Below, in pieces: positions 52 to 22,455 of a stretch of 64,000 nucleotides of DNA. Position numbers and translations under genes: made by a program. How positions within the stretch are numbered: position 1 is the first letter of the stretch; each line of letters opens with the position of its first letter. The stretch covers positions 320,001 to 384,000 of the forward strand of contig CBDANF010000003.1 in NCBI GenBank assembly GCA_965197475.1, read 5' to 3'. This DNA comes from Candidatus Poribacteria bacterium (GTDB taxonomy: Bacteria > Poribacteria > WGA-4E > WGA-3G). Below the pieces are notes generated by a model, which saw only the letters and a program-made list of their open reading frames with translations, made no database searches and had not been told where the DNA came from.

Positions 52-798
52 ATGCGTAAACAATTAGAGATAATTCTTACCGCTCTGTTTCCTATAATGG
101 TTTTGGCAATAGGTTATTTTGTTGTTTCTTCAAAAGTTCAAGTGCAGGCTAATCAGACAACATTCTATCCCGCAGAAGCAGGTCCTTATTATGATGATCC
201 TGGTGTAGACGGAACGTATTTCGGCGTTGAAATTAATTCTGACGACTTGTGCGATGTGCAAAATGGCTTTAACATTGCAAGTACAACGGAAGCTGCCAGT
301 ATCCGTCGTATCCGTGCCGCAAATGGCAATCTTGGAATTCGTTGGAGTCGAACACAGGATTGGCGTTTTGGTGATGTTACGCCTTGGGGTGGTGACTCTG
401 CCTACATAATTTATACTGATGATATGGGATGGGGTGAGGTATACGACCCTGAGAAAACAGGCATAACTGGTTTTCCTTGGGAAGGAAGCGAAAGCCATGA
501 TCGATATGTCTATGAAGGTAAACAATATATATTTACTTTTGCCGTAGTAACAGGATATGAGCGTTTAACACATAATAATATAAAGTATGTCTGTCCAAGG
601 TACTATAAATCTGTTTATAATATTATATATTCTTGTAGTGCTAAAGCGACCCATTGGGCCGATGGCACATTTAGGGAAGTTCGCAAACACCAATTTGGTC
701 CTATAGAACTTCGTATTCCTGGAGACAGTAGTTCAGCGGCTCGACTTGTAGACGAAGATGGCTTTCGTGAATGGTTCCCTTGCATAGAGTTAGACTAA
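52..798 (+). CDS. Exported or membrane-anchored hypothetical protein with 4 conserved Cys (family A, copy 1)
   Basis: AGGAGG at 37-42 precedes ATG 52. N-terminal hydrophobic segment. Shares AGPYY-PG-DG-YFG-EI, TPWGG, TGFPW-G, CP and C-terminal W-x-x-C motifs with 1068..1769 and 12759..13502. Confidence 0.85.
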   Translation: MRKQLEIILTALFPIMVLAIGYFVVSSKVQVQANQTTFYPAEAGPYYDDPGVDGTYFGVEINSDDLCDVQNGFNIASTTEAASIRRIRAANGNLGIRWSRTQDWRFGDVTPWGGDSAYIIYTDDMGWGEVYDPEKTGITGFPWEGSESHDRYVYEGKQYIFTFAVVTGYERLTHNNIKYVCPRYYKSVYNIIYSCSAKATHWADGTFREVRKHQFGPIELRIPGDSSSAARLVDEDGFREWFPCIELD

Positions 799-1067
799 TG
801 CATCTCAAAGTCATCAGATTCCGATGTTTATCAGTGTTTACTTGTTATTTGTTCCTGAAAATACTCGTTGAGAGTAGATAAGATGTGTCTTTGTCCAGAT
901 ATTTCAAGTCGTATTTGATGAATTATTTTACGTATCAAACGACTTGGATGTTGTATCAAGAGATAAATTAATAGTTTATGCCTAAGTTTGCAGAGACACC
1001 ATGTCGTTTCTCCAAACTTATTGATGATAACTTCAAAATTGTGCAAATTATCACGGAGGATAAAAAA

Positions 1068-1769
1068 ATGCGTAAACAATTAGAGATAATTCTTACCGCT
1101 CTGTTTCCTGTAATGGTTTTGGCAGTAGGTTTTTTTGTCGTTTCTTCAAAAGCAGAATTGCGTAATAATGAAACAGCCATTCCTGAAGAGGCAGGTCCTT
1201 TTTATAGATACCCTGGTGTAGATGGAGAATATTTCGGAGCTGAAATTTATTTTAACGTTATGTGCGATGTTTTTAATGGCTTTGAAATTGTCTCGGCATT
1301 TGAAAATGCCACTGTCTCTGCTTCGGATATCGCTGGTGCAGTTAGTTGGGATAAAGTGCAGAATTGGAGATTTAACGGAGATACGCCGTGGGGCGGTCAC
1401 TTTGCCATAATTAGTGCTGATATAACTATCAGGTGGTCAGAGATCCGTACAGGGTTTCCTTGGAGTGGACACCAGGGCTCTGTGCGAGTCATTGATGATG
1501 GTGAACAAGTTATATACGACAGTGGCACTGTAATAGGATGGGAGCAGTTTACGGACCCAAATGAGGCAAAACACATCTGTCCTATGTCCTACTTTCACAC
1601 GTTGGATAATAAATTATTTTGTGTAGATAAGAGTTTTGAATTGGGCGAAATGATAATAATAGGAGAAGAAGGATTTGGCGATCCAGTGTTAGTTGATCCT
1701 GAAGAAGGTATATATAGTCGGAAGGTAGTAGATATAGGCAGATGGATCGATTGCAAAAAGTTAAATTAA
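1068..1769 (+). CDS. Exported or membrane-anchored hypothetical protein with 4 conserved Cys (family A, copy 2)
   Basis: GGAGGA before ATG 1068. The first ~28 aa (MRKQLEIILTALFP.MVLA.G.FVVSSK) are nearly identical to copy 1; the remainder is diverged but keeps the motifs. Confidence 0.85.
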   Translation: MRKQLEIILTALFPVMVLAVGFFVVSSKAELRNNETAIPEEAGPFYRYPGVDGEYFGAEIYFNVMCDVFNGFEIVSAFENATVSASDIAGAVSWDKVQNWRFNGDTPWGGHFAIISADITIRWSEIRTGFPWSGHQGSVRVIDDGEQVIYDSGTVIGWEQFTDPNEAKHICPMSYFHTLDNKLFCVDKSFELGEMIIIGEEGFGDPVLVDPEEGIYSRKVVDIGRWIDCKKLN

Positions 1770-1836
1770 AAATTGGTCATTGCAGTTACTATAAACTGAT
1801 ATATTTACGCGATTGCACTCCAGTGGAACTAGTGTT

Positions 1837-1903: not shown

Positions 1904-1996
1904 TCCACTGTAGAGTGTGATGCCAATCAATAAGTAGCAACTTGTGTTATTTATTTTACAATGTTAAAAGAAGGTTCTAACAGAGAGGTTATCTTT

Positions 1997-2830
1997 ATGC
2001 AGGTTAAAACTATAAAAGCTCTGTGTTGGTTTCTGTATATCTTCACTTTTGCAGTAGACCGGCGAAAGAGCACTATAAAAATTGTTTTTGGAGTTGTTTT
2101 ATTGAGTGCTTTGACAACTGGTAGTGGTTATACTGGAGTCTGGAAAGATGATTTTGATGACATAGCCCTCAATGGTTGGGAACGTATTGTTGAGAAAAAT
2201 CCTTGGTTGGCAGACTGGGAAGTTTCCCCATTTACTATTGGACGCCTTCTTGCAGTAATACAGAAACCAGAACAGGAGCAGGGAACAGCTGCAGATTTTC
2301 TACACTGGAATGTCCACCAATTTCAACTTGACAAGATAACAGTGGTAGGTGATGAAGTCCGTTACACGCCTGTTCCAAATAATCCGCGTGGTGAACTTTG
2401 CTTATTCCTCGGTAAACGACAACCTTCGCCTGACTTCGCAGAAGGTTATATTTTCAGTCCTGAAAAGACAACAAGAATACAGTTTACCGAAAACGGCGTT
2501 TACAAGAAGGGTGAAGTGAAAGAGGATTATGCTCTAATGTTTCGACTAACTTCTGAGCATTTAAAGGTTGTTTTTGAGGCCGGAAAGTTTCAACTCTGGA
2601 CGCAAGACCTTCTAATTACAGAATTTGTTGACGACGATATTCCCATGATTGATGTTGTTGGTTTAATCAGCGTATGTGAACTTTTAGGGAAATGGTTTGA
2701 TGGGACTATCTCAACCTTTTCAATTTCTGGGCAAGGTATCCCTACCAATAATTCTTTTGATGTGCAGTTGGAAAACACGCAATTGACTACAACTTGGGGG
2801 AAGTTGAAAGATCTTAAGCAAGCTCAATAG
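1997..2830 (+). CDS. Secreted hypothetical protein with C-terminal TTW tail (family T, subtype 1)
   Basis: GAGG RBS before ATG 1997. Signal-like N-terminus, WKDDFDD..W mature start, ends TQLTTTWGKLKD. Close paralog of 7264..8091. Confidence 0.85.
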   Translation: MQVKTIKALCWFLYIFTFAVDRRKSTIKIVFGVVLLSALTTGSGYTGVWKDDFDDIALNGWERIVEKNPWLADWEVSPFTIGRLLAVIQKPEQEQGTAADFLHWNVHQFQLDKITVVGDEVRYTPVPNNPRGELCLFLGKRQPSPDFAEGYIFSPEKTTRIQFTENGVYKKGEVKEDYALMFRLTSEHLKVVFEAGKFQLWTQDLLITEFVDDDIPMIDVVGLISVCELLGKWFDGTISTFSISGQGIPTNNSFDVQLENTQLTTTWGKLKDLKQAQ

Positions 2831-2882: not shown

Positions 2883-5807
2883 ATGGACTTTGCATACATG
2901 CGGAAGCTCAGTAAACATCGGTTCAAACCTTCTATTTTACTTGTTGTGCTTACTATCATGTTAAGCACTTCGCTTTTTCTTTGTGTTTTTATTCGAACAG
3001 CGAATTATCCCCGTCTAGAAGAAACATATCTACTTGGTACTGACTCCTATCGTTTTCTTCGTCAAGCCGATCTGATTGTTTCTCAAGGACATTTGCCAGA
3101 AGTAGATACGCAACGATGGCAATTAGAAGGGAGAGATTTATCTACCTCGCCCACTCTCTTTTCTTATGTTCTTGCTTACGCTTATTGTCTTCTGCACTGG
3201 ATTTTTGCGGACATCAGTCTCTACAAGGTTGCTGTGTCCGCACCTATTGTGTGCTATTCGCTTTGTCTGTTGGCACTCTACGTTCTATGGAAGCATATTT
3301 TTGATACGCCTATCGCTCTTCTCGCTGTCAATTTTACCGCTATTTTCCCATCCTTAAATCTGCATCGTTCCGCCGCTGGTTTTGTGGACAGAGATGCTTT
3401 CGTCCTATTGTTGTGGTTGGTTATGTTCCTGTTCTACTTGAAGGCAGAATCTGGTATCTCTAAAACAGATTCATCTGCTGACATCACCCAGTCTTCCCCT
3501 CTGGTAAAGGGGATAAAGAGGAGTTCCGTATGTAGCAAATGGTCGATTTTCTTTTCTGCAGCGATATCGGGAATTGTCGGCGGATTGATCGCACTTTCTT
3601 GGGAGGGGGTAGGCCTTGCAATATCTATTCTTTCTATCTGGATCGGTGTCCGTGTGCTGCGGGGAGGTTTTTCTCGTCAAAGTGCGTTGGTTTATGTTAT
3701 CTGGTATCTCTGCTTCACCGTCCTTGTTTTCACATTTACGCGTGCCTATCACAACATCTGGGTTCCTTATGCTTTTTTGACAATTGTCATTCCAACTATT
3801 ACCCTTTTCTGTACCCTCACATTTTTTGGAGAGGAGAATTCAAAAACTACCAAAGCAGAAAAACCCGTTTCATTATGGAAACGTTTGCTGGAATTCTCAA
3901 GGTCCAGCAATATCCATAGATGCCTTTTCGGTTGCGTTATCACTACCTTCCTGTTGGCGGGGTTTGCTCTGTTGCAATCACCTGATATTGGTGAAACATT
4001 TCGTCGACTGTTTGACAATTTTGTCTCACCATTGGGGCAAAGCCGCCTTATGCGGACTGTTTCTGAACTTTTTGACTTAAGCGGAATCAGGTTTCTCAGT
4101 AGGTATTCAGTCATAGCTCTGGCGGCAATGGCAGGTTGTGGGGTCCTAGTTTACAATTTCTTTTCAAAAGAACGCGTTATTTTTCGGTTAACTCTAATTG
4201 GTTTTGAAATCGCGCTTGGTGGAACCCTTCTCTCCCTTTTCCTTACAAATTCGGATGTCTCTTTCAATATTTTTGGTTTTTCTTTTTTGATAAGTGGAAT
4301 TATAATAGGAATAGCATATATCCTTCGAACAGGAGATAATCTTGGAAATAATAAATATCTCTTACTGTTAATATGGATGTTTATTGGACTCGCCAGCAGC
4401 CGTGGTGCTGAACGATACCTCTTTTTTATTGATCCTGTGTTTGCTGTCTTCGTAAGTTTGCTGATTTTTACGGTGCTGCGCAGATGTATGAGGGAGCAAA
4501 TTGAAAATGATTCGTCTGATAAGACTGCAGCAAACGGTTCTGCTATCCAAATAGGGCCTGCAGTAAGAAATGTCCACACAGAATTGTGTGTGATAAGTCT
4601 TATCGTGGCTTCTGAACTATATATCGGATATCGTCTATCTGATGTAGATAGTTTCATAAGGTGGATATTTCTTGGCATGTCAATACCTTGTGGACTCTTC
4701 GGAGTTTTGCTGCTATACAAAATTGCGATGCTAAAAATAACCCACCTCCAAAGGTTTGGCTGCCTCGCGATCGTGTTTATTCTCATTCTTTTCACAAGTT
4801 CAGATGTTTTTTCTGTAGGTGGCGTTTTCAACCCCGCACCCTACCCGCTGCATAAAGGATTTGTCCGCGCAAGTACCGAGGCTGTAAGTAAAACAGCAGT
4901 TCCTCGTTCTCCGAAATTACAGAAGCATTTGGCTAATATAGCGGAGTATACCGATGAAGACGCGGTTATTGCCGCGTGGTGGGATTACGGAAGTAAAGTG
5001 AATTGGTTTACGAAACGTGCAACCGTTGTTGACGAGTACCACTACATTCCTTATTGGATATTTTTGACAGCACGACATGTCTTCAGTGGTATATCTTCTA
5101 CTGAAGCACTTGCATTTTTAAAAACACATAATGTAACGCATCTGTTGATAACGACAAACGAACTCCTTAAACTTGATACCGTTACGTATACAGGGTCCGA
5201 TGAAACTTATGACCGTGGTGCAGCTGTTCATTTTCTCATGCCGGGGCGCAGCCGTGAAGTTACGCCCTCCGTACGGCAAACAGACTTTATTCCACATAGT
5301 TATCGAACTGTGGATATGCTGTCGTTAAATGGAAAGGAATACCCACCCGGCAAATGGCTGCTGCGGGGTGTTTCAATTAGATCGGATGGTGATAGTTGGG
5401 AAGCGAAGGTTCATGGTGTAACCAAAGAAGGTGAGTTTTCTCTGCCGCCAGCAGAATTTCGGGTTGGCACATTACACATCAGTCATGAGAAAAAAGGGGT
5501 TCCCGGTTCTGTGGTTGTTTTTCATAACGAAATAGGTGGAAAATTGCAAGCATTCTATCTATCAGAAGGTGCTGCACGCTTACTTTCAGTACGATTATAT
5601 CTATTTTTGGAAGAGATTCCAGGTTTTTCATTGATATATGATACGAATTCTGAAGCGCGGTGTGATCCTGAAGGGTTCAGGCTCTGGAAAATTGATTATC
5701 CCGAAGCAATCCAACCCGATCCGAAATATCGGCAGCACGATTTTCCAAGCACTAAAAAGAAGTTGAAAAAATCTTGGGAACGTGGTAAGTTTTATAGTGT
5801 TCAGTAG
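2883..5807 (+). CDS. STT3/AglB/PglB-like oligosaccharyltransferase
   Basis: Many TM helices. Motifs GTDSY, RSAAGFVDRD (DxD), SWEG, TVSE (TIXE/SVSE-like), ERY, WWDYG (4977-4991) and ELLK (DK-like). Confidence 0.88.
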   Translation: MDFAYMRKLSKHRFKPSILLVVLTIMLSTSLFLCVFIRTANYPRLEETYLLGTDSYRFLRQADLIVSQGHLPEVDTQRWQLEGRDLSTSPTLFSYVLAYAYCLLHWIFADISLYKVAVSAPIVCYSLCLLALYVLWKHIFDTPIALLAVNFTAIFPSLNLHRSAAGFVDRDAFVLLLWLVMFLFYLKAESGISKTDSSADITQSSPLVKGIKRSSVCSKWSIFFSAAISGIVGGLIALSWEGVGLAISILSIWIGVRVLRGGFSRQSALVYVIWYLCFTVLVFTFTRAYHNIWVPYAFLTIVIPTITLFCTLTFFGEENSKTTKAEKPVSLWKRLLEFSRSSNIHRCLFGCVITTFLLAGFALLQSPDIGETFRRLFDNFVSPLGQSRLMRTVSELFDLSGIRFLSRYSVIALAAMAGCGVLVYNFFSKERVIFRLTLIGFEIALGGTLLSLFLTNSDVSFNIFGFSFLISGIIIGIAYILRTGDNLGNNKYLLLLIWMFIGLASSRGAERYLFFIDPVFAVFVSLLIFTVLRRCMREQIENDSSDKTAANGSAIQIGPAVRNVHTELCVISLIVASELYIGYRLSDVDSFIRWIFLGMSIPCGLFGVLLLYKIAMLKITHLQRFGCLAIVFILILFTSSDVFSVGGVFNPAPYPLHKGFVRASTEAVSKTAVPRSPKLQKHLANIAEYTDEDAVIAAWWDYGSKVNWFTKRATVVDEYHYIPYWIFLTARHVFSGISSTEALAFLKTHNVTHLLITTNELLKLDTVTYTGSDETYDRGAAVHFLMPGRSREVTPSVRQTDFIPHSYRTVDMLSLNGKEYPPGKWLLRGVSIRSDGDSWEAKVHGVTKEGEFSLPPAEFRVGTLHISHEKKGVPGSVVVFHNEIGGKLQAFYLSEGAARLLSVRLYLFLEEIPGFSLIYDTNSEARCDPEGFRLWKIDYPEAIQPDPKYRQHDFPSTKKKLKKSWERGKFYSVQ

Positions 5808-5912: not shown

Positions 5913-6104
5913 ACCCAAGTTGCTACCAATTAAAAATTCATCTTAATGTGTTCAATCTTTCGCTCCAGCGGAGCGATATGTTTATAGAAAAAAGTTAGTC
6001 TGTTCTTCCGCTCCAGCGGAGCGGTATGTCCAGTAACTATGAGTAGCACTTTTCTGAATATCCGCACCTATGATGTTTTCCAGGTTATAGGTGGCAACTG
6101 AGGT
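5913..6104. mobile_element. MITE-like element (TIR family ACC(C/T)AAGTTGCTAC) carrying two cgctccagcggagcg palindromes
   Basis: acccaagttgctacc (5913) and ggtggcaactgaggt (6090-6104) are imperfect TIRs. Direct repeat aattttta on both sides (5905-5912, 6105-6112). Palindromes at 5961 and 6009. Confidence 0.7.
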
Positions 6105-6159: not shown

Positions 6160-7257
6160 ATGTCAAAACGTTCCATTATCACAACAATCATCATTCCGGT
6201 TCTGCTGATTTCTGTGCTGGTTATTGTGCTTGTTAATAACCAGCAGGAGTTCCCTGGGGAACTGGTTTTTGCCGAAAACAGAGTCAATTTCGGGACAATC
6301 CCTGAATGGGAGGGGACCGTAACACGTTCAGTGATAGCGAGAAATGAGGGAAGAAGCCCATTGCGAATAGAAAGAATTCGTGCAGGGTGTAGTTATGCAA
6401 AAATTACCGGACCAAGACTGATTCAGCCTAATGAAGAAGGAACGTTCGAAGTTGTGCTTAATCCCAAAATTGTTCCAACTGATGCAAAAGCGGCGACAGC
6501 GATCCTTTTCACAGATAGTCCAAGAACCCCACAAGTTTATCTAACAATTGTTGCTGCATCAAAGCGGTTCGCCACACTGAGTGCTGAAATTTGTGATTTC
6601 GGACAGATAATCCCTGGAACAACACATAAAAAGAAAATAAAACTATGTGTAAACGCACCACTCAATTTAGAGAAAGTCCGACTCATGCCATCAGCGCATC
6701 CAAACCTGACTTGGAAAATGTCTCCAGATCCGAATTCGGAGTGTTTCCTCATCACAATTCAATTGCAGGCACCAAAAATATGGAAACAGGGAGACACAGA
6801 AACCCGACCCTATAATGCTGAAAAACTATTTTCTTCAATACTTACCGTCGCTTTTCCAAATGAGCGAACCTTGGCGTTACCTATTACTGCGAGAATCGTG
6901 CGACCCGTGACGGTGCAACCGAAAACCCTCTCCTATGGAGCAGTGGATAAAGACGCAAACCCATCTGCCGAATTCACACTTTCTGCGAAAAAGGGTTTTA
7001 AGGTACTCAGTATTCAGGTTCCTGACTATTTGCGGGTTGCTGCGCCGGACAATTGGACGCAATCCTTGCACGCCTACAACGCGCACTCACAACAAGAAAA
7101 ACGGTACAAGGTTTTTTGGGAGGTAGCAAATTCACCTGAACTGCTGCGTCAAGAGATCCTGGTCATGACAACAGCAGAAAAGTTACCGATTACTATTCCT
7201 GTCTACGGGTTAATTCGAACCGCAAAAAATGAAACTACCAAACTAACAGAGAGGTAA
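6160..7257 (+). CDS. DUF1573-like Ig-fold membrane-anchored protein
   Basis: N-terminal TM, then FGTI...RNEGRSPLRIERIRAGC matching the DUF1573 N-x-G-x-x-PL-x-I...C pattern. Repeated Ig-like modules (DFGQI, LSYG). Confidence 0.75.
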   Translation: MSKRSIITTIIIPVLLISVLVIVLVNNQQEFPGELVFAENRVNFGTIPEWEGTVTRSVIARNEGRSPLRIERIRAGCSYAKITGPRLIQPNEEGTFEVVLNPKIVPTDAKAATAILFTDSPRTPQVYLTIVAASKRFATLSAEICDFGQIIPGTTHKKKIKLCVNAPLNLEKVRLMPSAHPNLTWKMSPDPNSECFLITIQLQAPKIWKQGDTETRPYNAEKLFSSILTVAFPNERTLALPITARIVRPVTVQPKTLSYGAVDKDANPSAEFTLSAKKGFKVLSIQVPDYLRVAAPDNWTQSLHAYNAHSQQEKRYKVFWEVANSPELLRQEILVMTTAEKLPITIPVYGLIRTAKNETTKLTER

Positions 7258-7263: not shown

Positions 7264-8091
7264 ATGAGAATGAAAACTTTAAAATGCATTCACAGATTCT
7301 ATACGTTTTTACCTATTTTTAGTACTATTATTGATAAAAAAAAGATAATGGTAAAAACCCTTTTTTCTTTAGTCCTGTTATGTGTTCTCTTGTGCGGACA
7401 CAGTTACGCTGAGGTATGGAACGACTCGTTTGATGATGAGGAGCTCAAAGGATGGGAGCGAATTTGGCTGCGAAATCGTGGGGATGCCAAATGGGAAGCT
7501 GTTGATGGATTCCTCTTTGCCAATATTCAGGCAAATGATATCCCTCCAAGATGTCATAAGAACACAGTAGCTTTTCTGCACTGGAAAATCGTCCAATTTA
7601 ACTTTGAGCAGTTAACAATAGTAGGGGAAGAAATAACTTATCCACAGGAAGGAGGAGATGGTATGGGGGAACTCTGCTTGTTTATTGGGAAACGTCAAGA
7701 TGATCCTGATTTAGCAGTCCAAGGTTATATCGTTAGTCCCGAAGAGATTAGTAAAGTTACCATTTCAGAGAAGGAATATAGTAGAGGAAAGACGAAAGCG
7801 TGGTATGGGAACATATTCCAAAACACGACACGCAATCTTACAACTGTTTTTGATTCTGGCCATTTCCAAGTCCGGACTGGCGACGAACTGATAACTGAAT
7901 TCATTGATGAGAACTTAAAAACTATTGATATTGTGGGATTGCTCATTACGTGTCACTTCGGAGGAGAGTGGTTTGGCAGCAGGATATCAAGTATCTCGAT
8001 TTCTGATAAAGCAATAATCAAACCTAATCTTGCTGTACAATTACGAGGGACACAACTCACGACAACTTGGGGAGCGTTGAAGCGATTCTAA
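7264..8091 (+). CDS. Secreted hypothetical protein with C-terminal TTW tail (family T, subtype 1)
   Basis: Signal peptide ending SYA; WNDSFDD..GWERI, FLHW, GELCLF.GKRQ shared with 1997..2830; ends TQLTTTWGALKRF. Start could be 7264, 7270 or 7348. Confidence 0.85.
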   Translation: MRMKTLKCIHRFYTFLPIFSTIIDKKKIMVKTLFSLVLLCVLLCGHSYAEVWNDSFDDEELKGWERIWLRNRGDAKWEAVDGFLFANIQANDIPPRCHKNTVAFLHWKIVQFNFEQLTIVGEEITYPQEGGDGMGELCLFIGKRQDDPDLAVQGYIVSPEEISKVTISEKEYSRGKTKAWYGNIFQNTTRNLTTVFDSGHFQVRTGDELITEFIDENLKTIDIVGLLITCHFGGEWFGSRISSISISDKAIIKPNLAVQLRGTQLTTTWGALKRF

Positions 8092-8130
8092 TCAAAATCA
8101 AAACGTGTGTTTAAGATAAGGAGTTGTAAC

Positions 8131-8916
8131 ATGAAGCATATCATACGCATCTTAATAGGACTTACGTTATTCTTTGTGTCCGGTATTTTTTGTCCATCCG
8201 CTTTTTCACAAGGTTACCATGATGGTTTTGATGTTTTGAGAGAGAAAAACTGGGAACATTGGGGCAAATATGCTATATGGAAAACCGAAGACGGCATATT
8301 AAAGGGATGGATTAACGCACCCGATTTCGGGGATGTGGGGCCTACAATTGAGCTGCTCCAATTCAAGGATTTCAGTGGTGCTTATGAAAACTATGAGACC
8401 GCTAATGGTCAAGAAGTGATTCAAAGACAGATAAAAAATCCGGGATACGAAACCTTCACAATTATCGTCCAAAACATAGGTGAAAAGCGTGCGGATTTTG
8501 GCATAGCGCTCGGGAAGCGGTTTTCCGAACGCCGTGGAGACAGGCCATTTTTCTATCTGTTTCTAACGCATATATCATATTCTGTACGTTTTGATGTCGG
8601 GGGAGGTGTGGCATTTGGCAAGTCTACTGGACGGGAACCTCTTAACCCTGATACTAACTGGAGGACTCAAGAGTTGGAATCCATGGAACTACATTTCAAT
8701 AAAGGACATATTCAGTGGTTCGCGGATGGTGAAAAACGCGCTGATTTTGAAGACCCTGATTTTTCTTCTGTTGAGATTCTCGGATTTGTCGTAATTGGGA
8801 ATGGAGTTGCTGTTGGACATGCATGGGTAGATTCATTCAAGATTTCTGGTCCAGGGTTATCCGTTTCACCACAAGCAAAGTTAGCAACAACGTGGGGACA
8901 ACTCAAGCAGCGTTAG
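8131..8916 (+). CDS. Secreted hypothetical protein with C-terminal TTW tail (family T, subtype 2)
   Basis: AGGAG RBS; signal peptide; FGIALGKRF, MELHF, WVDSF.ISG; ends SVSPQAKLATTWGQLKQR. Confidence 0.85.
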   Translation: MKHIIRILIGLTLFFVSGIFCPSAFSQGYHDGFDVLREKNWEHWGKYAIWKTEDGILKGWINAPDFGDVGPTIELLQFKDFSGAYENYETANGQEVIQRQIKNPGYETFTIIVQNIGEKRADFGIALGKRFSERRGDRPFFYLFLTHISYSVRFDVGGGVAFGKSTGREPLNPDTNWRTQELESMELHFNKGHIQWFADGEKRADFEDPDFSSVEILGFVVIGNGVAVGHAWVDSFKISGPGLSVSPQAKLATTWGQLKQR

Positions 8917-13502: not shown

Positions 13503-13617
13503 CATGAACTCAATCGTTGGCACAGTCAATCTGTTAATTCGTTTGTAGTTGCGCAATTCACGCGCCTCTTATTTGCGGTCAGAAACGCGCAGCTGCATTT
13601 CTAGGCAAAACAGTAAA

Positions 13618-14319: not shown

Positions 14320-14825
14320 TGCGTCTTTATCCAAAAAAATCTCAAAGCGATATACAAAACAGGTCTGAGCGCGGATTATCTCAACAAATTATCAAGGAAT
14401 CGCTAATTGTTTGTGTTTGGATCAGTTTTGGAGCCTTAACACTCTGGGGGGCGGAGGTGGCTGGACTTTTCTCTTCCACCTTCCAAATTCAGGGAAGTTC
14501 TACCTTACAAGTTGATTTCCCTGCAGTCTACCAAATTTGGAAACGTGGAGAGGCTGTTTTTGTAGACTCGCGTTCCGCAGCCAACTTCAGGCGGGGGCAT
14601 ATCCCAGATGCCGTAAATGTACCTATCAACCGCGTGCAGCAGGAATTAGATGTACTGCCAACAGACAAAGAAGTGCTTTTGATTACCTATTGCGGAAGCA
14701 TTGAATGTCCAAATGCCTATCAGTTGATGAACGTTCTATTGGGGTACGGTTACCAAAACGTAAAGTTTTTTCCGCGCGGACTGAGAGGTTGGCAGGCATT
14801 AGGACACCTACTGGAAACAGAATGA
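14319..14825 (+). CDS. Membrane-anchored rhodanese-like domain protein
   Basis: TM helix, then FVDSR...F..GHIPDAVNVP, YCGSIEC, GY.NV...GL.GW. Confidence 0.88.
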   Translation: MRLYPKKSQSDIQNRSERGLSQQIIKESLIVCVWISFGALTLWGAEVAGLFSSTFQIQGSSTLQVDFPAVYQIWKRGEAVFVDSRSAANFRRGHIPDAVNVPINRVQQELDVLPTDKEVLLITYCGSIECPNAYQLMNVLLGYGYQNVKFFPRGLRGWQALGHLLETE

Positions 14826-15316
14826 CAATTCCGTCACTGTTGGTGACAACACTCAGAATTATTCTTGGGGCGATTCTTCTGTTCGCCGGGATTGCTAAGC
14901 TTGCGAATTTCAACGCGTTTGTAACCGATGTAGCCGGTTACCAGATATTACCGACGGGATTGGCAAAGCCGATAAGTTATCTATTGGTATCGGAAGAGAT
15001 AACGTTAGGGATAGCGTTGAGCATAGGCTATTTTTCGCGAGGCGCAGGTATATTGGCATCATTTCTCTTTCTGATATTTGCGATTGCATTGGCAAATGTG
15101 TTGTGGCGAGAACTACCCGTAGCGGATTGCGGCTGTGCCAATTTTCTTTTTACTATTCTGGATTTCTTAGGGTTTTCGATTTCAACAACGCCTAATTGGA
15201 AGATGGTTTTCGTAGATATTGGGTTAGGGGTAACATGTTTTGGGATAGCTTGTTCACCGCAACTGGGATATGGTTTGGAATCTTTTATCCCAAGAATGAG
15301 ACGTAATGAAGTTTAA
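14822..15316 (+). CDS. MauE/DoxX-family redox-associated membrane protein
   Basis: R..LG...LFAG.AK, E..LG..L..G and DCGC motif; 4 TM helices; overlaps the rhodanese stop. Confidence 0.85.
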   Translation: MTIPSLLVTTLRIILGAILLFAGIAKLANFNAFVTDVAGYQILPTGLAKPISYLLVSEEITLGIALSIGYFSRGAGILASFLFLIFAIALANVLWRELPVADCGCANFLFTILDFLGFSISTTPNWKMVFVDIGLGVTCFGIACSPQLGYGLESFIPRMRRNEV

Positions 15317-15369
15317 TTTACAATCTCTCCTAAATAATTCTGAAAATATTATAATTTTCAAAATTTAAG

Positions 15370-15397
15370 TTGACAAAAAATTAAATTCGCGTATAAT
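15370..15397 (+). promoter_or_regulatory. Consensus sigma70-type promoter
   Basis: TTGACA (15370-15375), 16 nt, TATAAT (15392-15397). Confidence 0.65.
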
Positions 15398-15450
15398 TTA
15401 CCAAAAGTGGTGAAAAAACTGATAATTTCGCGAATTTTTTGAAAAAAGAT

Positions 15451-15480
15451 TTGACATTTACTGAAACTTACTGTTATAAT
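15451..15480 (+). promoter_or_regulatory. Consensus sigma70-type promoter with extended -10
   Basis: TTGACA (15451-15456), 18 nt, TGn-TATAAT (TATAAT at 15475-15480). Confidence 0.65.
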
Positions 15481-15781
15481 ACCTATATTAAGTCGTATAT
15501 ATAAATATAAATTTAGGCGTGAAAAAGAGAAGCGAGACTTTAAACGTCGCAATCATGTTTTCTGATGAATGATGGAGGTTTTATCAATAGAGTAACCAAC
15601 ATTAATGAATAACCGACATGTAAATACCGCAATCCAGAAAAGATCACATCCAGATACTCGTCATTTAAGCAAGGACAGTGTTTGTGGGTTTGTATTAATT
15701 ACCCCCCCCTCACTTCACATTCGTTAATTTATTCACAGGACAAGGTCTTATTGCAGGATGGACATGCTGCAATATTTTTGT

Positions 15782-15834
15782 GCCCGCACGTACTTCGTCT
15801 TTCACGGAGTGTCACGTCGCGGGCTTTTGTTGTT
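15782..15834 (+). terminator. Putative intrinsic terminator or attenuator hairpin in a long leader
   Basis: gcccgc-acgt-acttcgt pairs with acggagt..acgt..gcgggc and is followed by ttttgttgtt. Confidence 0.45.
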
Positions 15835-16061
15835 ACACATTCGGAATTTCCGATGTTTATTATCCCTGCACTGCAGATGAAACCTATAACTATTGCTTAT
15901 TTTTTGATTTGACAAAATTCAGTGGAAAACGTAGAATTGCATTAACGCTACCCGAACAACCTGTCCGAAGGACGGACACTGAAAACCAAAACGGATAGCA
16001 TTCGCAAATTCACTATTTTCCACTTATCGCCACAGAAAAATGTGGCAAGGAGATAAACAAA

Positions 16062-16919
16062 ATGAAAAGAAGATTTGTTGAATGCGCGCTATTATTAGGC
16101 ATTGTGATGTCTGTTGTCTTTTTAGCACAAACGCAAGATGGATTGGGGCACAGTAAAAATATGCACGATCCTCAATTTGATGTTGATCCGAGTGGCAACG
16201 AAGTTGGGCAAGGTAATGGTAATGATCCGAGGGGCAAAAGTTTTCATTATTCTAACGGCAGTGTTATCGGCTATGTATGGGGTAAAGGTTGGCAGTACCG
16301 AGGAGGACTGTTGAATGGAGCGACCGAAGAACAGACAAATGATCCAAACGATACTGGTCACCCAGAAGACGAAATCCATCAAATGATTTATGTCTTGCAG
16401 ATTAGAGCTGACTGCTGGGCAAGGCCTTCGTCATGTGAGGCAGAAATAAAACCGAGTCTTAAATATGTTGATGCATTGGCTCCAAGAAGACATGTTTTTG
16501 GAGGATGGGGATCAATAAGTCTTAAATTTTCCCATGTGTGTTATCATGAAGTCGTCGGAATCTGGTCTCAGCAGCAGTGTGAGGTAAGGGAGAGAGAGGA
16601 AACACTGTGGAGTGCTGGTCAATCAATTTTCATTAAGGTTACTCTCAATGAATACGCTGAGAAGAGAAGTGGGAGTTTTGGTGCATCACTTAAAGGCGTT
16701 TCTGCTTCATATTCCCACGAGTATCAAGAAAAGTATAATGATCTTCACGCACGTGGATTTGGCATAAAAGCGAAACTCAGGGGCAATCCGTATGACCCTG
16801 TGATTTATAAACAAGATAAGTATGCGGGTGCCTCCGGATATGTTCAGAGCGCAAGAACTGGTGATCTCCTGGCAGCCCGTCCTGGTGTTGACAGTCATGA
16901 ATGTCCAGGTTCACAATGA
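16062..16919 (+). CDS. Secreted Cys-containing hypothetical protein
   Basis: AGGAG RBS, signal peptide, 285-aa ORF, 5 Cys in the predicted mature part. Confidence 0.8.
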   Translation: MKRRFVECALLLGIVMSVVFLAQTQDGLGHSKNMHDPQFDVDPSGNEVGQGNGNDPRGKSFHYSNGSVIGYVWGKGWQYRGGLLNGATEEQTNDPNDTGHPEDEIHQMIYVLQIRADCWARPSSCEAEIKPSLKYVDALAPRRHVFGGWGSISLKFSHVCYHEVVGIWSQQQCEVREREETLWSAGQSIFIKVTLNEYAEKRSGSFGASLKGVSASYSHEYQEKYNDLHARGFGIKAKLRGNPYDPVIYKQDKYAGASGYVQSARTGDLLAARPGVDSHECPGSQ

Positions 16920-17027: not shown

Positions 17028-18383
17028 ATGAAAAGACGAATGATTTTAACAACGCTGCTTTTTCTTATAATTGTCATTGGTTTTTCTGTTTACCTGAATA
17101 ATAGAAAGACAGGACAACAGTCTATCACGGAGCAGCTTTCTACGTTCAAGCAGCATGAACACATCGCACCAGATGGCACTGTCGTGAAACATCAACACAC
17201 TTACGAGGTTCCCGAACTATCCGAAGGTGTTGTGAAACCGAAACCGGTTTCCGAGTCAAGGCATCCCATCCAGCGCGCATGGGAAGCACTTGACCTCGCA
17301 GCAATTAAAAGGAAATATCAACCTTACACCGTCGCTGAAATGCAGGAAATGTGGTCGCAATCTTATATGACCAACTTTGGTCCAAATTACCCACATGAAC
17401 TTGATGAGGCATATCCACAAGAGGAATGGCTTCAACACAATTTGGAATTAGGGCAACATTTCGCAGATTTTACGGACTATGAAACAACGTTGGAGCGGCG
17501 ATATATGATGGTAGATCATCGGGACAAGTGGAAAGTTAAGGACGAAGTAGGCAGAGAGGAAATGCGTGGATACCTTGATTTGCCGTCCTACGTAGACACC
17601 TGGGAAGAGTATGAGGATGCATTCCTTAAGACACTTATCACCTCTTATCACACGTTTGTAGTGGCAACAGAGTCGGATCCTGATATTGAAGGTGGCACTG
17701 TCGGCACCGATGGCACCCTCATCCCGTTCAAGAAGAACACTGTGTATGTCCATGTTAATATAGAAAAAGGTTTTTCAACGTTCACGGGAACAGAGTTAAC
17801 CAACGACGAAGAAAATACGTTAACAATGTATGGTGTTGTCCCTGAAGGGCTAACAGTTATCTATACAGATGAGGGAGGAAAACCTTTATCATCGGATACT
17901 CCTCCGCCTACTTTCCATGCGCGGCGTATGAAGGAATTGGAACAAGCACAAACATATCTGCAACAGCAAATAACAGATCATGAAGTATTGTTAGAACTTG
18001 ATGCTATTCTCAATCCACAGGAAAAAGGAGCAGGCACTACTTCTGTACCGCATGAACATGAACATGAGCAGGAGCATGACCACACACACGAGACACTGCA
18101 ACCTCCTGATAAGGTAACGCCACAGCAGTCTAATGCAAAGCAGCCCCTGCCGCATCTGAAGATACCACCGGAACTACGCACGCCAGAAGCGATCAATCAA
18201 TGGTTTACCGAATTAGAGGTACTGCACGGTGGGCAATTGCCGAAAGATTTGCAGGCACTCCGGGAAGTTATCACTGAATTGGAGAAAATAAGACAGGAAG
18301 GTGAAGCGAAGTTGAAACCGCCACAACCGCCAGAACGTCCGGCACCGCCAGAAGGAAATTCCCCTCCTGATAAGACAGACTAA
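17028..18383 (+). CDS. Membrane-anchored hypothetical protein with His-rich and Pro-rich segments
   Basis: GGAGG RBS; N-terminal TM; HEHEHEQEHDHTHE; PPQPPERPAPP tail; domain shared with the next gene. Confidence 0.85.
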   Translation: MKRRMILTTLLFLIIVIGFSVYLNNRKTGQQSITEQLSTFKQHEHIAPDGTVVKHQHTYEVPELSEGVVKPKPVSESRHPIQRAWEALDLAAIKRKYQPYTVAEMQEMWSQSYMTNFGPNYPHELDEAYPQEEWLQHNLELGQHFADFTDYETTLERRYMMVDHRDKWKVKDEVGREEMRGYLDLPSYVDTWEEYEDAFLKTLITSYHTFVVATESDPDIEGGTVGTDGTLIPFKKNTVYVHVNIEKGFSTFTGTELTNDEENTLTMYGVVPEGLTVIYTDEGGKPLSSDTPPPTFHARRMKELEQAQTYLQQQITDHEVLLELDAILNPQEKGAGTTSVPHEHEHEQEHDHTHETLQPPDKVTPQQSNAKQPLPHLKIPPELRTPEAINQWFTELEVLHGGQLPKDLQALREVITELEKIRQEGEAKLKPPQPPERPAPPEGNSPPDKTD

Positions 18384-18420
18384 GGGTTACCGCTTGAAGA
18401 TTCAAGCACGTGAAAACGCC

Positions 18421-19017
18421 ATGAAAAATCGAATAATTCGGGTAGTCATAGTCCTTTTCATGCTTGTTATCGTGGGCATCGTCTATCTCAGTGCTCAGAA
18501 GACAGATACGCCATCGTTGATAGACATTACTGAACAAGAACGCAACCATGAATTACGAAGTGTGAAAAAGTTTGCATGGTTTAAACATTGGGACCAACTT
18601 GACCTTGCCATTGTCAAAAGATATTATCAACGATACACCGTCGCTGAGATGCGGATAATATGGGATGAAAAAATGCATGCCAAGTCCGGTAACTTTGAAG
18701 GGAGAGAACATGCAGATGCTGTCTATCCTTGGGATACCTATCTTACGCGCCTGCTTGAATTGGGGTACCCTTTTGTTGACTTCTCAGACTATGAGAACGC
18801 CTTATATACGCGGATGTGTATACTAATTCCGACACGAACCTACTGGCATACCATCAATATATCTGCAAAAGGTGAGTATCTCAAGGTCCGCGGGTTGTCC
18901 GCTGATACAACCTGGACAACGTATGAGGAGTCATTGATAAAAAAGATCGTTGTCTGTCGTATCAATTGGTGGCGTTCAGGCGGTATAGATCCTTTTTCAG
19001 AGTGGGAATCACAGTAA
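18421..19017 (+). CDS. Membrane-anchored hypothetical protein, partial paralog of 17028..18383
   Basis: W..LDLA..KR.YQ.YTVAEM...W, YP, LELG..F.DF.DYE..L..R are shared with the upstream gene. Confidence 0.8.
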   Translation: MKNRIIRVVIVLFMLVIVGIVYLSAQKTDTPSLIDITEQERNHELRSVKKFAWFKHWDQLDLAIVKRYYQRYTVAEMRIIWDEKMHAKSGNFEGREHADAVYPWDTYLTRLLELGYPFVDFSDYENALYTRMCILIPTRTYWHTINISAKGEYLKVRGLSADTTWTTYEESLIKKIVVCRINWWRSGGIDPFSEWESQ

Positions 19018-19044
19018 TGTTTGTTCTCAGTCGGGAATAGGAAT

Positions 19045-19148: not shown

Positions 19149-19220
19149 CGGACTCACAAATTTGGGACACAGCACTCTTTACTTGTGGAGGCGGTTACAA
19201 CGAAAATAAAGTCAGTAAAA

Positions 19221-19973
19221 ATGAAACATTCGTTAGCATTTATCGTTATCCTTGCAATCAGTTTCGGAATAACTCTGTTTCTTGTCCTTGGTCGTGGACG
19301 CGGTTCTGATGCACTAAACACATCTAAGACTTCTACACATCAAACAGGGGTTATTATAAACAACACTGTAACGCAGGAACGCAACCTCCCAAAACAGAGT
19401 CCCATCCAGAAGGGTGACGATAAGGTTCTTGTTTCTAACAATGAAGAAGACTTCTACCGCACCATTATTGAAAATAACATATTTCGACCACTTAACTGGA
19501 AACCGACACGACAAGACCCGGCGTATATATTGATCGGCACTCTCGTACCTTCAGATGATAGTACTGCTACCGCATACATTAGTGAACGGAAGACAGATCA
19601 GTTTTACACCGTAAAGGTTGGTGAAAAAATAGGTAATGCTACTGTTACAGCGATTCTCCCAAAGCATGTCACGTTGGACAAAGAAGGCAAGGCGTTAAAC
19701 CTCTATATGGCATCTGCCTCACTTCTAAGCCGAACCCGTAGTGGCAGAAGTTCATCCTACCGCCCATCACCTCAGCCACAAGTCACATCCCAGAATCGCA
19801 ATTCGCAAACACGCAGCACAACGGACAAAGAACGCCAAGCGTGGCGAGATACACAAAAAGAACGGATAGCAGAATTGAAAGAGATGGCAGAAAAGCTCCG
19901 CGCCGTTTCAGAGGAAGAACGCAGCCGAATGCAGGAACATCTTGAACAACGTGCAAGCAGAAACTCCCAATAA
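19221..19973 (+). CDS. GspC/PilP-like (T2SS HR-domain-like) membrane-anchored protein with coiled C-terminus
   Basis: N-terminal TM; NIFRP...LIGTL......AYI......YTVKVGEKIG.A.V..I....VTL..EG....L resembles the GspC HR domain; charged helical tail. Confidence 0.6.
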   Translation: MKHSLAFIVILAISFGITLFLVLGRGRGSDALNTSKTSTHQTGVIINNTVTQERNLPKQSPIQKGDDKVLVSNNEEDFYRTIIENNIFRPLNWKPTRQDPAYILIGTLVPSDDSTATAYISERKTDQFYTVKVGEKIGNATVTAILPKHVTLDKEGKALNLYMASASLLSRTRSGRSSSYRPSPQPQVTSQNRNSQTRSTTDKERQAWRDTQKERIAELKEMAEKLRAVSEEERSRMQEHLEQRASRNSQ

Positions 19974-19995
19974 GACTAACGTGAAAACTTATCAA

Positions 19996-22455
19996 ATGAA
20001 CCACTCCTTACTGCCCCGTATCGGTGCATCACTCATACTCCTCACGCTTTTATTTTTATCGTTTTGGATTCGGGTACAAGGTGTAGAACGTATTCCGGAT
20101 GGGCAGTTTAGTGCTAACGATGCCTACCTTTATTATTGGAATGCACAAAGAATTGCTGAACTCGGATATCTCCCTGCTATTGACGAACACCGATGGCTGC
20201 CTCAAGGTAGAGACGTAAGCCAAACGCTTGCCTTTTACTCCTACGTGCTCGCTTACACGCATAGAGTAACAAAGTTATTCTTTTACAAGGTCTCCCTCTA
20301 CCACATCCAACTTTATGCCCCCGCTGTTTGTTTCACACTTGCCCTTGGAATTTTAGCACTTTTTCTTACCCGCACAGTCGGATTTCTATTTGCTTTCATT
20401 GTCACCGTGCTGCTGGCAACGTTGCCGGGCTGTGTGGATAGAAGTGCCGCGGGCTTTAGTGATAGAGACGCGTGGTGTTGGTTGTTAGGCACTCTCGCTG
20501 TCGTTTCCTACCTATGGAAAGAGCAGATACCTTTAAATCCCCCTGACAAAGGGGGTTGCGTCCCTGTCAAAGAAGGAAAAGGGCTAAAAAATTGGCGTAG
20601 GTACACTGCTACCGGACTCTGCGGGTTTATTGTTTTTTTAGGTGGACTCTCTTGGGAAGGGTTCGGTGTATTTCTTTTAGTTATCCTCTTTATAGAACTT
20701 TGGAAGTTCTGCACCTCCGACACAGAAGAGCATCTGCTTGAGTATGCAATATGGGTGGCAATGTTCGTGCCGTGGCTTTATCTCACTTCACCTGCATATC
20801 GGGGCGGTCAGGTTTTCACTACACATCTCACTGCCCTTGTGTTGGTGCCACCGCTTGTCGTCCTTGGACTTCAAGGGGTAAGATATATCCTGCTTCATTT
20901 CTTTAAACCGCTCCAAATCCATGCCAGAAAAATAGCAGGACTCCTAACACTTCTTGCGATTGTGGGCGCGGGATTCTACGTTTTTTCCCAAGTTGGGACC
21001 TTTGCGAGTACCACGGTCCCGTTTAGTGAAAACCGATTGATGCAGCAGACAACCGAATTAGAAAACCCAAGTTTTATGTATTGGGTGTCTCGATATGGGG
21101 GTGTGTTTGTGTTGGGCAGCATTGGCTTAGTAGGCACATGCTTTCATTTGTGGAAATGGGAAGGGGTTCCTTTGGCAGTCTCCCTTTCCTTATTTGCACT
21201 CACAACCTTCTTGCGAGGTCCTCTCATCGGTTTCATAAGTGCCTCTCTATGTGATGCGTTGTTTCTCGCTGCGTTAGGACTTGCTATCATCGGCATCGGA
21301 TTCGCATGTTTCCGAAAAGAAGTAGGACAAAATGAACGTGCCTTCATCGCAACTGTAGCGTGGTTCATCTTATGGGTAGGTTTGTCGAAAAGTGCAGTAC
21401 GTTATGACTTCTTTATCGGAATCCCACTGGCAATTGGAACAGCATCTATTTTGGCACGTTCACCTACGTCTGGCAAACCCGTTCACATTAGTGGTAGAGA
21501 CATTCACCCTAAATTAGTAACCGCGGCGTTTGCAGTCGGCATGTTGGTACTTCTTCTATTTTGGGCACCTGTTGGTGGCTATGCCAATAGAGCAATCCGA
21601 GTTGCCAGTGAACGTCCACCGGTACCTGGACACAGCAGTTTGCTTCAGGCATACACTTGGATGAAAACCGAACTCCGCGCAGATACAACGGTGATGGCTG
21701 CAAACTGGGGGTACGGCAGCCAACTTAACGTCCTTGGCAGTGTAAAAACTATTGTTGACCAAGACCATTTTATACAGCACTGGATACATCTCTACTACCG
21801 ACACGTTTATTGTGCCCAATCTGAACAAGAAGCTTTAGAATTCCTCAAAACACACCACGCAACACATCTGATGATCACAGCTTCTGATCTAACCATCAAC
21901 GCAGGTGGGATGTCATACGTCGGCAGCGATGCTGATTTAGACAGACACTTCGACTTTTACGCACTTGATGCAATGCCCACCGCACCCGGAACACAATACA
22001 CTCTTGCACCGAAAATATATCAAAGACCTCCGCGTTTCATGCCACAAACCACATTAGATACCATTGACATCCGCGGCACCGAAATTGAAAACTTATCCGT
22101 AACCGCACGGTTCAAAACAGGCGATATATCACACATCCCTTATGTCGCTTATGTCGGCAACCAGCGGATCACACCAAAAGAAAAAACGGATACAGAAAAC
22201 GGCAGTCTTGTTATACTCTTCGACGTACAAAAGAAACTTCTATACAGTTTTTACCTTCCAGCCATCGGATGGAACAGTCTTGCAGTCAAATTGTTCATAC
22301 GTGGCGAACACACGGAGGCATTTGTAAACGTTCACACTATTACCCCAAAAGGTATAGATATTCCTCCGGAAGTCAAAATATGGAAAATCAACTATCCACC
22401 TGACATCAAAAAGAACCAGAAATATCTTGAAACAGAACCACCCGAAGGTTATTGA
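19996..22455 (+). CDS. STT3/AglB-like oligosaccharyltransferase with variant NWGYG motif
   Basis: ANDAY, RSAAGFSDRD, SWEG, TTELE, VRY, NWGYG (21703-21717), EALEFLKTH..THL.IT; collinear with 2883..5807. Confidence 0.85.
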   Translation: MNHSLLPRIGASLILLTLLFLSFWIRVQGVERIPDGQFSANDAYLYYWNAQRIAELGYLPAIDEHRWLPQGRDVSQTLAFYSYVLAYTHRVTKLFFYKVSLYHIQLYAPAVCFTLALGILALFLTRTVGFLFAFIVTVLLATLPGCVDRSAAGFSDRDAWCWLLGTLAVVSYLWKEQIPLNPPDKGGCVPVKEGKGLKNWRRYTATGLCGFIVFLGGLSWEGFGVFLLVILFIELWKFCTSDTEEHLLEYAIWVAMFVPWLYLTSPAYRGGQVFTTHLTALVLVPPLVVLGLQGVRYILLHFFKPLQIHARKIAGLLTLLAIVGAGFYVFSQVGTFASTTVPFSENRLMQQTTELENPSFMYWVSRYGGVFVLGSIGLVGTCFHLWKWEGVPLAVSLSLFALTTFLRGPLIGFISASLCDALFLAALGLAIIGIGFACFRKEVGQNERAFIATVAWFILWVGLSKSAVRYDFFIGIPLAIGTASILARSPTSGKPVHISGRDIHPKLVTAAFAVGMLVLLLFWAPVGGYANRAIRVASERPPVPGHSSLLQAYTWMKTELRADTTVMAANWGYGSQLNVLGSVKTIVDQDHFIQHWIHLYYRHVYCAQSEQEALEFLKTHHATHLMITASDLTINAGGMSYVGSDADLDRHFDFYALDAMPTAPGTQYTLAPKIYQRPPRFMPQTTLDTIDIRGTEIENLSVTARFKTGDISHIPYVAYVGNQRITPKEKTDTENGSLVILFDVQKKLLYSFYLPAIGWNSLAVKLFIRGEHTEAFVNVHTITPKGIDIPPEVKIWKINYPPDIKKNQKYLETEPPEGY

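Follow-up and report, generated by a model that had tools for sequence, protein, structure and literature searches.

The closest described systems are the oligosaccharyltransferases (OSTs) of eukaryotes (STT3) and archaea (AglB), which we take to carry the CAZy label GT66, and PglB of Campylobacter, which acts in the periplasm as a single-subunit bacterial enzyme of the STT3 family. STT3-type N-glycosylation in bacteria has, to our knowledge, been established in practice for PglB of Campylobacter and its relatives. The stretch of DNA analysed here, called the window, covers 64,000 nucleotides (G000:C3:320001-384000) of a 5.7-Mb Candidatus Poribacteria genome in three contigs; coordinates below are window positions unless a contig is named. 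It contains two genes for STT3-like proteins, OST1 and OST2, among genes for exported proteins that include two paralogous families, designated A and T. The explanation we favour, with moderate confidence, is that the locus consists of two adjacent, independently conserved, Poribacteria-specific cell-envelope cassettes, in which OST1 is an ancestral but dispensable STT3-type OST and OST2 an enzyme with a probably different acceptor. Among the papers listed in literature searches, none links Poribacteria with STT3 by title or abstract, and the one that mentions both Poribacteria and oligosaccharyltransferase is unrelated. This bacterial STT3/AglB-like lineage, with its expansion of altered-motif paralogs, is new with respect to the literature reached in that way.

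A bacterial STT3/AglB-like lineage

Both proteins score over the cut-off of the STT3 profile PF02516 (Table 1), and a hydropathy scan finds 16 hydrophobic segments in OST1 and 9 in OST2. OST1 shares with eukaryotic STT3 and archaeal AglB the Pfam STT3 N-terminal domain, a match to the NCBIfam model archaeo_STT3 over residues 26-554, an Asp in external loop 1 (EL1), a DxD motif, a TIXE-like Glu and the WWDYG motif; the archaeo_STT3 match, at 68 bits, falls far below the 450-bit cut-off for that family. It aligns to yeast STT3 (6c26, E 6e-9) over the DxD and WWDYG regions. A profile of eight OST1 orthologs reaches yeast STT3 at E 1.5e-15, mammalian STT3A at 3.4e-12 and A. fulgidus AglB at 1.2e-6, and matches the C-terminal domain of PglB (3aag) only weakly, at 0.0058. 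OST1 resembles PglB as a single-subunit bacterial member of the family, but its sequence is closer to STT3 and AglB. What sets the present lineage apart from STT3 and AglB is its bacterial host, the presence of six loci in one genome, the occurrence of xWxYG in all but the OST1 subfamily, and the patchy, dispensable nature of OST1.

Motifs were compared in an alignment of 37 STT3-like sequences, taken from the present genome and from related ones, counts being of the sequences that cover each site. The acidic residues that we take to be the EL1 Asp, the DxD-type motif and the TIXE/SVSE Glu of external loop 5 (EL5) are retained throughout, with the EL1 Asp in 34/34, DRD in 35/35 and the EL5 Glu in 35/35. 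WWDYG, by contrast, is intact in 8/8 OST1-type sequences and in 0/28 of the others, which read NWGYG, NWEYG, HWEYG, SWEYG and similar. In OST2 (NWGYG) the second Trp of the motif is still present, as are its Tyr and Gly. The first Trp and the Asp are lost, and a different acceptor from the canonical one is therefore probable. OST2 also has a long periplasmic C-terminal domain and, after the motif, a conserved DxDH...W block. In the alignment this block, DxDH(Y/F)..W, stands where the DK or MI motif stands after WWDYG, and it might be a counterpart of that motif. Judged by these motifs, only OST1 looks like a canonical N-OST.

Across the phylum, a search with OST1 at a threshold of E 1e-10 finds matches in 119/176 genomes. 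OST2-type genes (E 1e-60 or better) occur in 95/176 genomes, nearly all of them in the family-level group f1 (93/111), and are often multicopy. A quick IQ-TREE phylogeny, midpoint-rooted and with no true outgroup, places a long branch between the OST1 clade and the f1 expansion that contains OST2; branching inside the OST1 clade tracks taxonomy, with f5, then f3, then f1. OST2 thus belongs to a large, lineage-specific expansion of STT3-like transferases of the GT-C fold class.

Three further STT3-like loci of this genome have suggestive neighbours. A third long gene, reading NWEYG (G000:C3:531350-533809), immediately follows the genes of two PD40 beta-propeller proteins (the whole group at 531350-536093; L054 8351-13094, minus strand) that end in the C-terminal tag described below, and in genome G092 one tagged protein is kept directly upstream of its ortholog. 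Two short genes, at C3:1751560-1753227 (L055) and C3:2522021-2524060 (L056), each adjoin a gene for a CDP-alcohol phosphatidyltransferase, and one of the two is split into two open reading frames (ORFs). Their setting hints at a lipid-linked role for this short subfamily.

Beside PglB, this is a second bacterial STT3 lineage, carried by an uncultured sponge-symbiont phylum, and its sequences are closer to the eukaryotic and archaeal enzymes. Having multiplied to several copies per genome with the canonical acceptor motif in one subfamily only, it offers a natural series for the role of WWDYG in acceptor choice, and glyco-engineering might draw on it for single-subunit OSTs of new specificity.

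Two cassettes with separate histories

An earlier note on this DNA, made from the sequence alone, had proposed a single island of 22 kb for the maturation of surface proteins, with each OST grouped with its putative clients. Comparison with relatives shows two independently conserved cassettes in place of the single island, and so bears out the division into two modules that the same note had drawn: in the close relatives G107 and G078, MauE is directly followed by the sulfotransferase gene, with no second module between them.

OST1-type genes, defined by E 1e-150 or better against OST1, occur in 13/176 genomes, and family A in 114/176, including 109/111 of f1. All 13 OST1-bearing genomes also carry family A. 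Outside f1, OST1 is found in 2/4 genomes with family A (G029 and G005) and in 0/61 without it. Nine OST1 loci were fetched, from families f1, f3 and f5 (G105, G071, G108, G070, G069, G109, G076, G029 of f3 and G005 of f5), and in 9/9 OST1 sits among genes for family A, family T, DUF1573 and CarboxypepD_reg proteins; rhodanese and MauE accompany them in 6/9. Gene order differs among the nine, with DUF1573 adjoining OST1 in most. Had the OSTs proved unlinked to families A and T, DUF1573 or MauE in other genomes, the idea of an association would have failed; for OST1 the linkage holds in every locus fetched, across three families. Among the remaining OST1-bearing genomes, G072 and G077 have a family A gene on the same contig as OST1, and the G081 contig is too short to judge. 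STT3-like genes about 30% identical to OST1, in G050, G045 and G041, have no A, T, DUF1573 or CarboxypepD_reg partners.

The association runs in one direction only. In a sample of 12 family A loci whose genomes lack OST1, CarboxypepD_reg-T-A-T remains an intact cluster in 12/12, and no STT3-like gene lies closer to it than about 10 kb. Nearby genes include DUF1573 in 9/12 and MauE in 5/12, with rhodanese alongside in four. Genome G107 matches the window gene for gene through T1, DUF1573, T2, T3, CarboxypepD_reg, T4, A3, T5, rhodanese, MauE and the sulfotransferase. It lacks A1, A2, OST1, the insertion sequence (IS) and all of cassette 2, and its T1 ortholog lies directly upstream of DUF1573 with no OST1 in between. 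Where OST1 is present, it is broken in 3/13 genomes: by stops and split ORFs in G109, by a split in G077, and in G108 by a 1.15-kb interrupting segment that carries a 353-aa ORF on the opposite strand. Cassette 1 (13-15316 in the window) has a core of CarboxypepD_reg, T, A, T and DUF1573, joined in many genomes by the rhodanese-MauE pair, and OST1 is an optional, decaying member of an otherwise autonomous cluster. Because of the phyletic pattern of OST1 and the tree of its clade, the data fit an ancestral cluster that held OST1, followed by repeated loss of OST1 alone. The work thereby defines a conserved, unstudied envelope gene cluster with an orphan-fold family, A, and repeated loss of OST1 constrains any claim that glycosylation is essential to the proteins of the cluster.

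Cassette 2 (16062-22455) has a fixed arrangement of its own. The order X1, X2, (X3), GspC-like, OST2 is found in 11/11 loci (L073-L083), including paralogous copies 51-55% identical to OST2. Adjacency to cassette 1 is confined to the present genome and G109; in G105 the cassettes are far apart, at 1.40 and 5.84 Mb. OST2-type loci of genus g6 have X1 or X matches in 0/7 cases, their neighbours being WD40 proteins and a MacB-like permease. By these comparisons, cassette 2 is a separate operon, inserted here between MauE and the sulfotransferase gene. The spacer ahead of it (15317-16061) contains two perfect (12-of-12) sigma-70-like sites, at 15370-15397 and 15451-15480, both pattern matches only; the earlier note had assigned module 2 its own promoters, and these promoter-like sites lie upstream of X1. 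The spacer may possibly be a long leader or encode a small RNA; Rfam gave no match over positions 1-23500.

The GspC-like protein matches T2SSC at E 1e-5, just below the cut-off, and the NCBIfam model GspC_delta at E 3.2e-8 (33.7 bits, where the model requires 150). Neither a secretin nor a pseudopilin gene adjoins it among the Pfam matches of the window or in the 11 cassette 2 loci. It has 12 paralogs in its own genome and a conserved core. In X2, eight His positions are kept in at least 90% of 11 orthologs, and the protein also has a His/Glu-rich stretch; this composition suggests metal binding.

Candidate substrates and competing explanations

From the gene content, motifs, linkage and phyletic pattern observed here, we infer transferase activity, donor, acceptors and redox role as follows. 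OST1 would take a lipid-linked glycan made elsewhere in the genome and move it, in the periplasm, to the Asn of N-x-S/T in exported proteins, of which the co-encoded ones would be its likeliest preferred, non-obligate targets. The rhodanese and MauE proteins would oxidise the cysteines of family A. Conserved cysteines make such a redox role plausible: family A has four (13-14 of 14 sequences), the rhodanese has CxxxxC (Cys 126 and 131, 7/7), MauE has CGC (Cys 142 and 144, 7/7) and DUF1573 has Cys 77 and 145 (10/10). This MauE is the only copy in the genome. The arrangement resembles thiol oxidation by MauE/MauD and by DsbB/VKOR-like proteins, in that a MauE with conserved CGC has an anchored CxxxxC partner and Cys-rich neighbours. 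It differs in that the partner is rhodanese-like rather than the thioredoxin-like MauD. Neither methylamine dehydrogenase nor other mau genes occur among the Pfam matches of the window or the upstream 20 kb. There is presumably also a likeness to the eukaryotic OST oxidoreductase subunits Ost3/Ost6 and MagT1/TUSC3, since here too an STT3 enzyme is encoded with thiol-redox and Cys-rich exported proteins; there is, though, no homology to those subunits, and rhodanese and MauE are also found in clusters without OST1.

Several results weigh against this proposal, and against the client-plus-modifier idea of the earlier note. The core cluster is intact without OST1 in most genomes, and glycosylation therefore cannot be needed for its maturation. 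Rhodanese and MauE are absent from the cluster in g6 and g4 loci. As had been noticed before, genes for glycosyltransferases, flippases and nucleotide-sugar synthesis are absent from the Pfam and NCBIfam annotation of the island, and the same holds for the rest of the window and the 20 kb upstream. In favour of the proposal, the genome does encode three initiating transferases (Bac_transf) at other places. The pgl locus of Campylobacter differs in having glycan-assembly and flippase genes adjacent, while the OST genes here stand among genes for exported proteins. Counts of N-x-S/T in the neighbours, observed against shuffled, are 21 against 24.3 for family A, 48 against 47.4 for family T, 8 against 20.3 for DUF1573 and 42 against 38.2 for CarboxypepD_reg; in cassette 2 they are 30 against 25.9 for X1 (marginally above), 8 against 15.7 for X2 and 4 against 8.3 for X3. 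By these counts there is no enrichment in the neighbours of either OST. Nor is there a strongly conserved sequon column, the best being 6/14 in A, 6/44 in T and 7/10 in CarboxypepD_reg. Nothing visible in the sequences of the neighbours marks them as N-glycosylation substrates. The terms "maturation island" and "clients" are therefore interpretive: the linkage behind them stands, but the dependence is one-way, the cluster occurring without STT3, and the sequon signal is missing.

The C-terminal tag adds a further point of this kind. The tail of family T, approximately VEPxGKL(A/T)TTWGx(L/I)K, has about 16 residues followed by 1-10 more. It had been taken as special to the five T paralogs and turns out to end 64 ORFs of the genome, which fall into 20 similarity groups once the tail is removed. 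Tagged proteins include Laminin_G_3, PD40 propeller, leucine-rich repeat (LRR), LDL-receptor class B, F5/8 type C, NPCBM-metallopeptidase and CBM9 proteins; an LRR protein with the tag lies at the far end of the window (63085-63999, minus strand). A degenerate DNA pattern for the tail is found in 175/176 genomes of the phylum, with a handful to about 110 copies each, against 0-1 for a reversed control. With a stricter pattern, run on a species-level genome collection, 78 of the 80 loci listed (at least 118 stretches) are titled Poribacteria and 2 "uncultured bacterium". The pattern is present in G019, G020, G022, G034 and G062, where PF02516 exceeds its cut-off in 0/5 (one sub-threshold match, 16.8 bits). 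Being phylum-wide and present in genomes without STT3, the tag is independent of STT3 and is not an OST recognition element; we rejected it as an acceptor tag. The one hint of a link between tag and STT3 is the third long STT3-like gene, which follows two tagged proteins.

The tag resembles PEP-CTERM, LPXTG, GlyGly-CTERM and the C-terminal domain of the type IX secretion system (T9SS) in being conserved at the C-terminus of many unrelated exported proteins. It differs from signals of the PEP-CTERM and LPXTG type in that no hydrophobic helix or basic cluster follows it, the protein ending 1-10 residues on, and from the T9SS domain in that it is not a folded domain (predicted local distance difference test, pLDDT, below 50). 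No Pfam or NCBIfam model matched T1-T5, and among the papers listed in a literature search on a TTWG-type C-terminal motif none was relevant by title or abstract.

The strongest rival to the two-cassette explanation, although we consider it unlikely, is that the genes are co-located by descent with no client relationship, in a variable, insertion-prone stretch of envelope genes whose STT3-like enzymes are general-purpose or act on targets elsewhere. The persistence of the core cluster without OST1 in all the sampled genomes speaks for it, as does the missing sequon signal. When the window is compared with G107 and G078, both cassette 2 and the IS1 element stand out as inserted, and the joints have REP-like palindromes beside them; the g6 paralogs of OST2 have unrelated neighbours, with X1 or X matches in none of seven loci. 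Descent alone accounts less readily for an OST1 that stays within one gene set across three families despite reshuffled order, and that tracks family A outside f1, where it is confined to genomes with family A. The same is true of cassette 2, whose X1-X-GspC-like-OST order is kept between paralogous copies of only 51-55% identity, and whose GspC-like ORF overlaps the start of OST2.

An extended form of the two-cassette explanation, which we regard as improbable, is that STT3 has here turned into a cassette-borne family with dedicated clients. OST1 would work with a thiol-redox module (rhodanese, MauE and DUF1573) on Cys-rich proteins, comparable to STT3B with MagT1/TUSC3; the xWxYG paralogs would have new, non-N-x-S/T acceptors among the adjoining orphan proteins; and the whole would form a swappable glyco-coat directed at the sponge host or at phages.

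A different role for family T is suggested by structure. The AlphaFold2 (AF2) model of T4 (pLDDT 85.5, with the last 15 residues, 216-230, below 50) is a ConA-like beta-sandwich. Its matches, at TM-scores of about 0.4-0.57, are ConA-like lectins and GH16 glucanases, among them lectins of legumes and two cargo lectins, VIP36 and Emp47p. Family T is accordingly modelled as having a lectin-type fold of the ConA-like class, which is a further point against its members being substrates. They could be lectins that bind a bacterial or host glycan, forming a glycan-binding surface assembly that OST1 decorates or feeds. Carbohydrate-binding domains in other tagged proteins (Laminin_G_3, CBM9, NPCBM and F5/8 type C) and the lack of a conserved sequon in T agree with such a role. 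The ConA-like fold is very common, however, the TM-scores are modest, and T proteins occur in clusters without OST1; we think this explanation somewhat less probable even than the glyco-coat. We find it just as improbable that the diverged STT3-like paralogs, those of OST2 type foremost, transfer sugar to lipid or polysaccharide and not to protein: the loss of WWDYG from every non-OST1 sequence, the CDP-alcohol phosphatidyltransferase neighbours of the two short paralogs and the long branch between the OST2 and OST1 clades would be in keeping with it, but OST2 keeps three residues of the motif (second Trp, Tyr and Gly), the long periplasmic domain and the DxDH...W block, and is co-operonic with exported proteins, not lipid enzymes.

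Gene content and other features of the locus

The features of both cassettes are collected in Table 1. By Pfam and NCBIfam, positions 13-22455 hold two STT3-family, three family A and five family T genes, with DUF1573, CarboxypepD_reg-repeat, rhodanese, MauE, GspC-like and IS1 transposase genes. Every gene that had been named from the sequence alone was found in its place by ORFs, Pfam and NCBIfam, and blastp confirmed the two sets of paralogs: identities are 30-40% among A1, A2 and A3, 20-41% among T1-T5, 24-30% between OST1 and OST2 and 29% between X2 and X3. In the ORF list, all sizeable ORFs of this region are on the plus strand with the sole exception of the IS1 transposase, so that the co-orientation described earlier stands for every gene but that one. 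The exported or membrane nature of the products was likewise upheld: a 19-residue hydropathy scan detects hydrophobic segments, N-terminal or multiple, in 17/19 island proteins; it misses the transposase and T1, the latter with a shorter signal-like stretch. The MauE gene is present as described, but its listed start at 14705 is likely wrong; a start at about 14822 is the most likely because the upstream extension of the listed ORF (14705-15316) overlaps the rhodanese gene and is poorly conserved.

Table 1. Features of the two cassettes and their boundary, in window positions
Feature	Positions	Strand	Evidence
A1: family A paralog; membrane-anchored, 4-Cys, orphan-fold exported protein	13..798	+	
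A2: family A paralog; true start probably near 1068	978..1769	+	
T1: family T, ConA-like beta-sandwich (predicted) with C-terminal tag	1961..2830	+	
OST1: STT3-family GT-C enzyme; EL1 Asp, DRD, TVSE, intact WWDYG	2883..5807	+	Pfam STT3 E 1.1e-14
REP-like palindrome, two copies, in OST1-DUF1573 spacer	5958..6030		
DUF1573 Ig-like protein; N-terminal anchor, two invariant Cys	6160..7257	+	Pfam E 7.8e-10
T2: family T with tag	7264..8091	+	blastp, tail motif
T3: family T with tag	8107..8916	+	blastp, tail motif
Secreted protein of repeated CarboxypepD_reg (transthyretin-like) domains	8965..11076	+	Pfam E 4.7e-50, 5 stretches
T4: family T with tag; modelled sequence	11101..11793	+	AF2 model
IS1-family transposase, between T4 and A3	11810..12574	-	NCBIfam E 2.7e-57
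A3: widely conserved family A ortholog	12759..13502	+	
T5: family T with tag	13549..14319	+	blastp, tail motif
Rhodanese-like protein; membrane-anchored, conserved CxxxxC	14316..14825	+	Pfam E 2.9e-13
MauE/DoxX-family membrane protein; conserved CGC	14822..15316 (listed ORF start 14705)	+	Pfam E 3.7e-19
A+T-rich spacer, 745 bp, junction of both cassettes	15317..16061	+	two perfect sigma-70-like sites
X1: secreted orphan protein, cassette 2 gene 1	16062..16919	+	
X2: anchored orphan protein, many conserved His	17028..18383	+	
X3: shorter X2 paralog	18394..19017	+	
GspC-like single-pass protein; end overlaps OST2 start	19185..19973	+	T2SSC 25.9 bits (cut-off 27)
OST2: STT3-like GT-C enzyme; acidic catalytic residues kept, NWGYG in place of WWDYG	19942..22455	+	Pfam STT3 E 2.1e-10
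Sulfotransferase_5, boundary marker	22550..23278	-	Pfam E 2.5e-47

Orthologs of T4 and A3 are adjacent or overlapping in relatives and are split by the IS1 element in the window. The spacer between the transposase ORF and A3 contains a 37-base stretch (12700-12736) with 12 copies in the genome, and a promoter-like site with an 11-of-12 match (12629-12657) faces A3. A second set of REP-like palindromes lies in the X3-GspC spacer (19040-19150); contigs from public runs often break or pile up there and at the OST1-DUF1573 spacer.

Family A matches no Pfam domain. In a collection of 5.8 billion proteins it forms just 32 clusters, all under names from Poribacteria. The AF2 model of A3 (pLDDT 84.9) has no convincing solved relative, the best matches being E 0.055 by Foldseek against the Protein Data Bank (PDB) and Z 3.8 by VIA. 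Identity as a pseudopilin was considered and looks unlikely: EpsH (Z 3.2) and GspH (Z 2.9) are weak matches in a list whose best Z is 3.8, and no prepilin-type Gly-Phe motif is visible.

Contigs from RNA libraries of two sponge-metagenome runs are identical to the window at 31-268 (A1), 1211-1572 (A2), 7675-8034 (T2), 10338-10584 (CarboxypepD_reg), 13371-13572 and 14030-14271 (A3/T5), and 15419-15734 (the spacer between the cassettes, where a further contig matches 15482-15705); another, at 14711-15023 (rhodanese/MauE), has one differing base. The two runs gave no contigs over OST1 or X1-X3, and such absence is not evidence of silence. These matches are a weak hint of transcription in the sponge host, DNA carry-over being possible in such libraries.

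Two other features lie nearby. Upstream of the window, at L053 563-8273 (G000:C3:300563-308273), is a Pup-proteasome gene set, in which two members of the Pup-ligase family accompany a proteasome subunit and a proteasomal AAA ATPase. Within the window, at 32767-37515 on the minus strand, a 1582-aa protein joins DUF4011, AAA_11/AAA_12 helicase domains, an MTES_1575 restriction-endonuclease-like domain and DUF3320.

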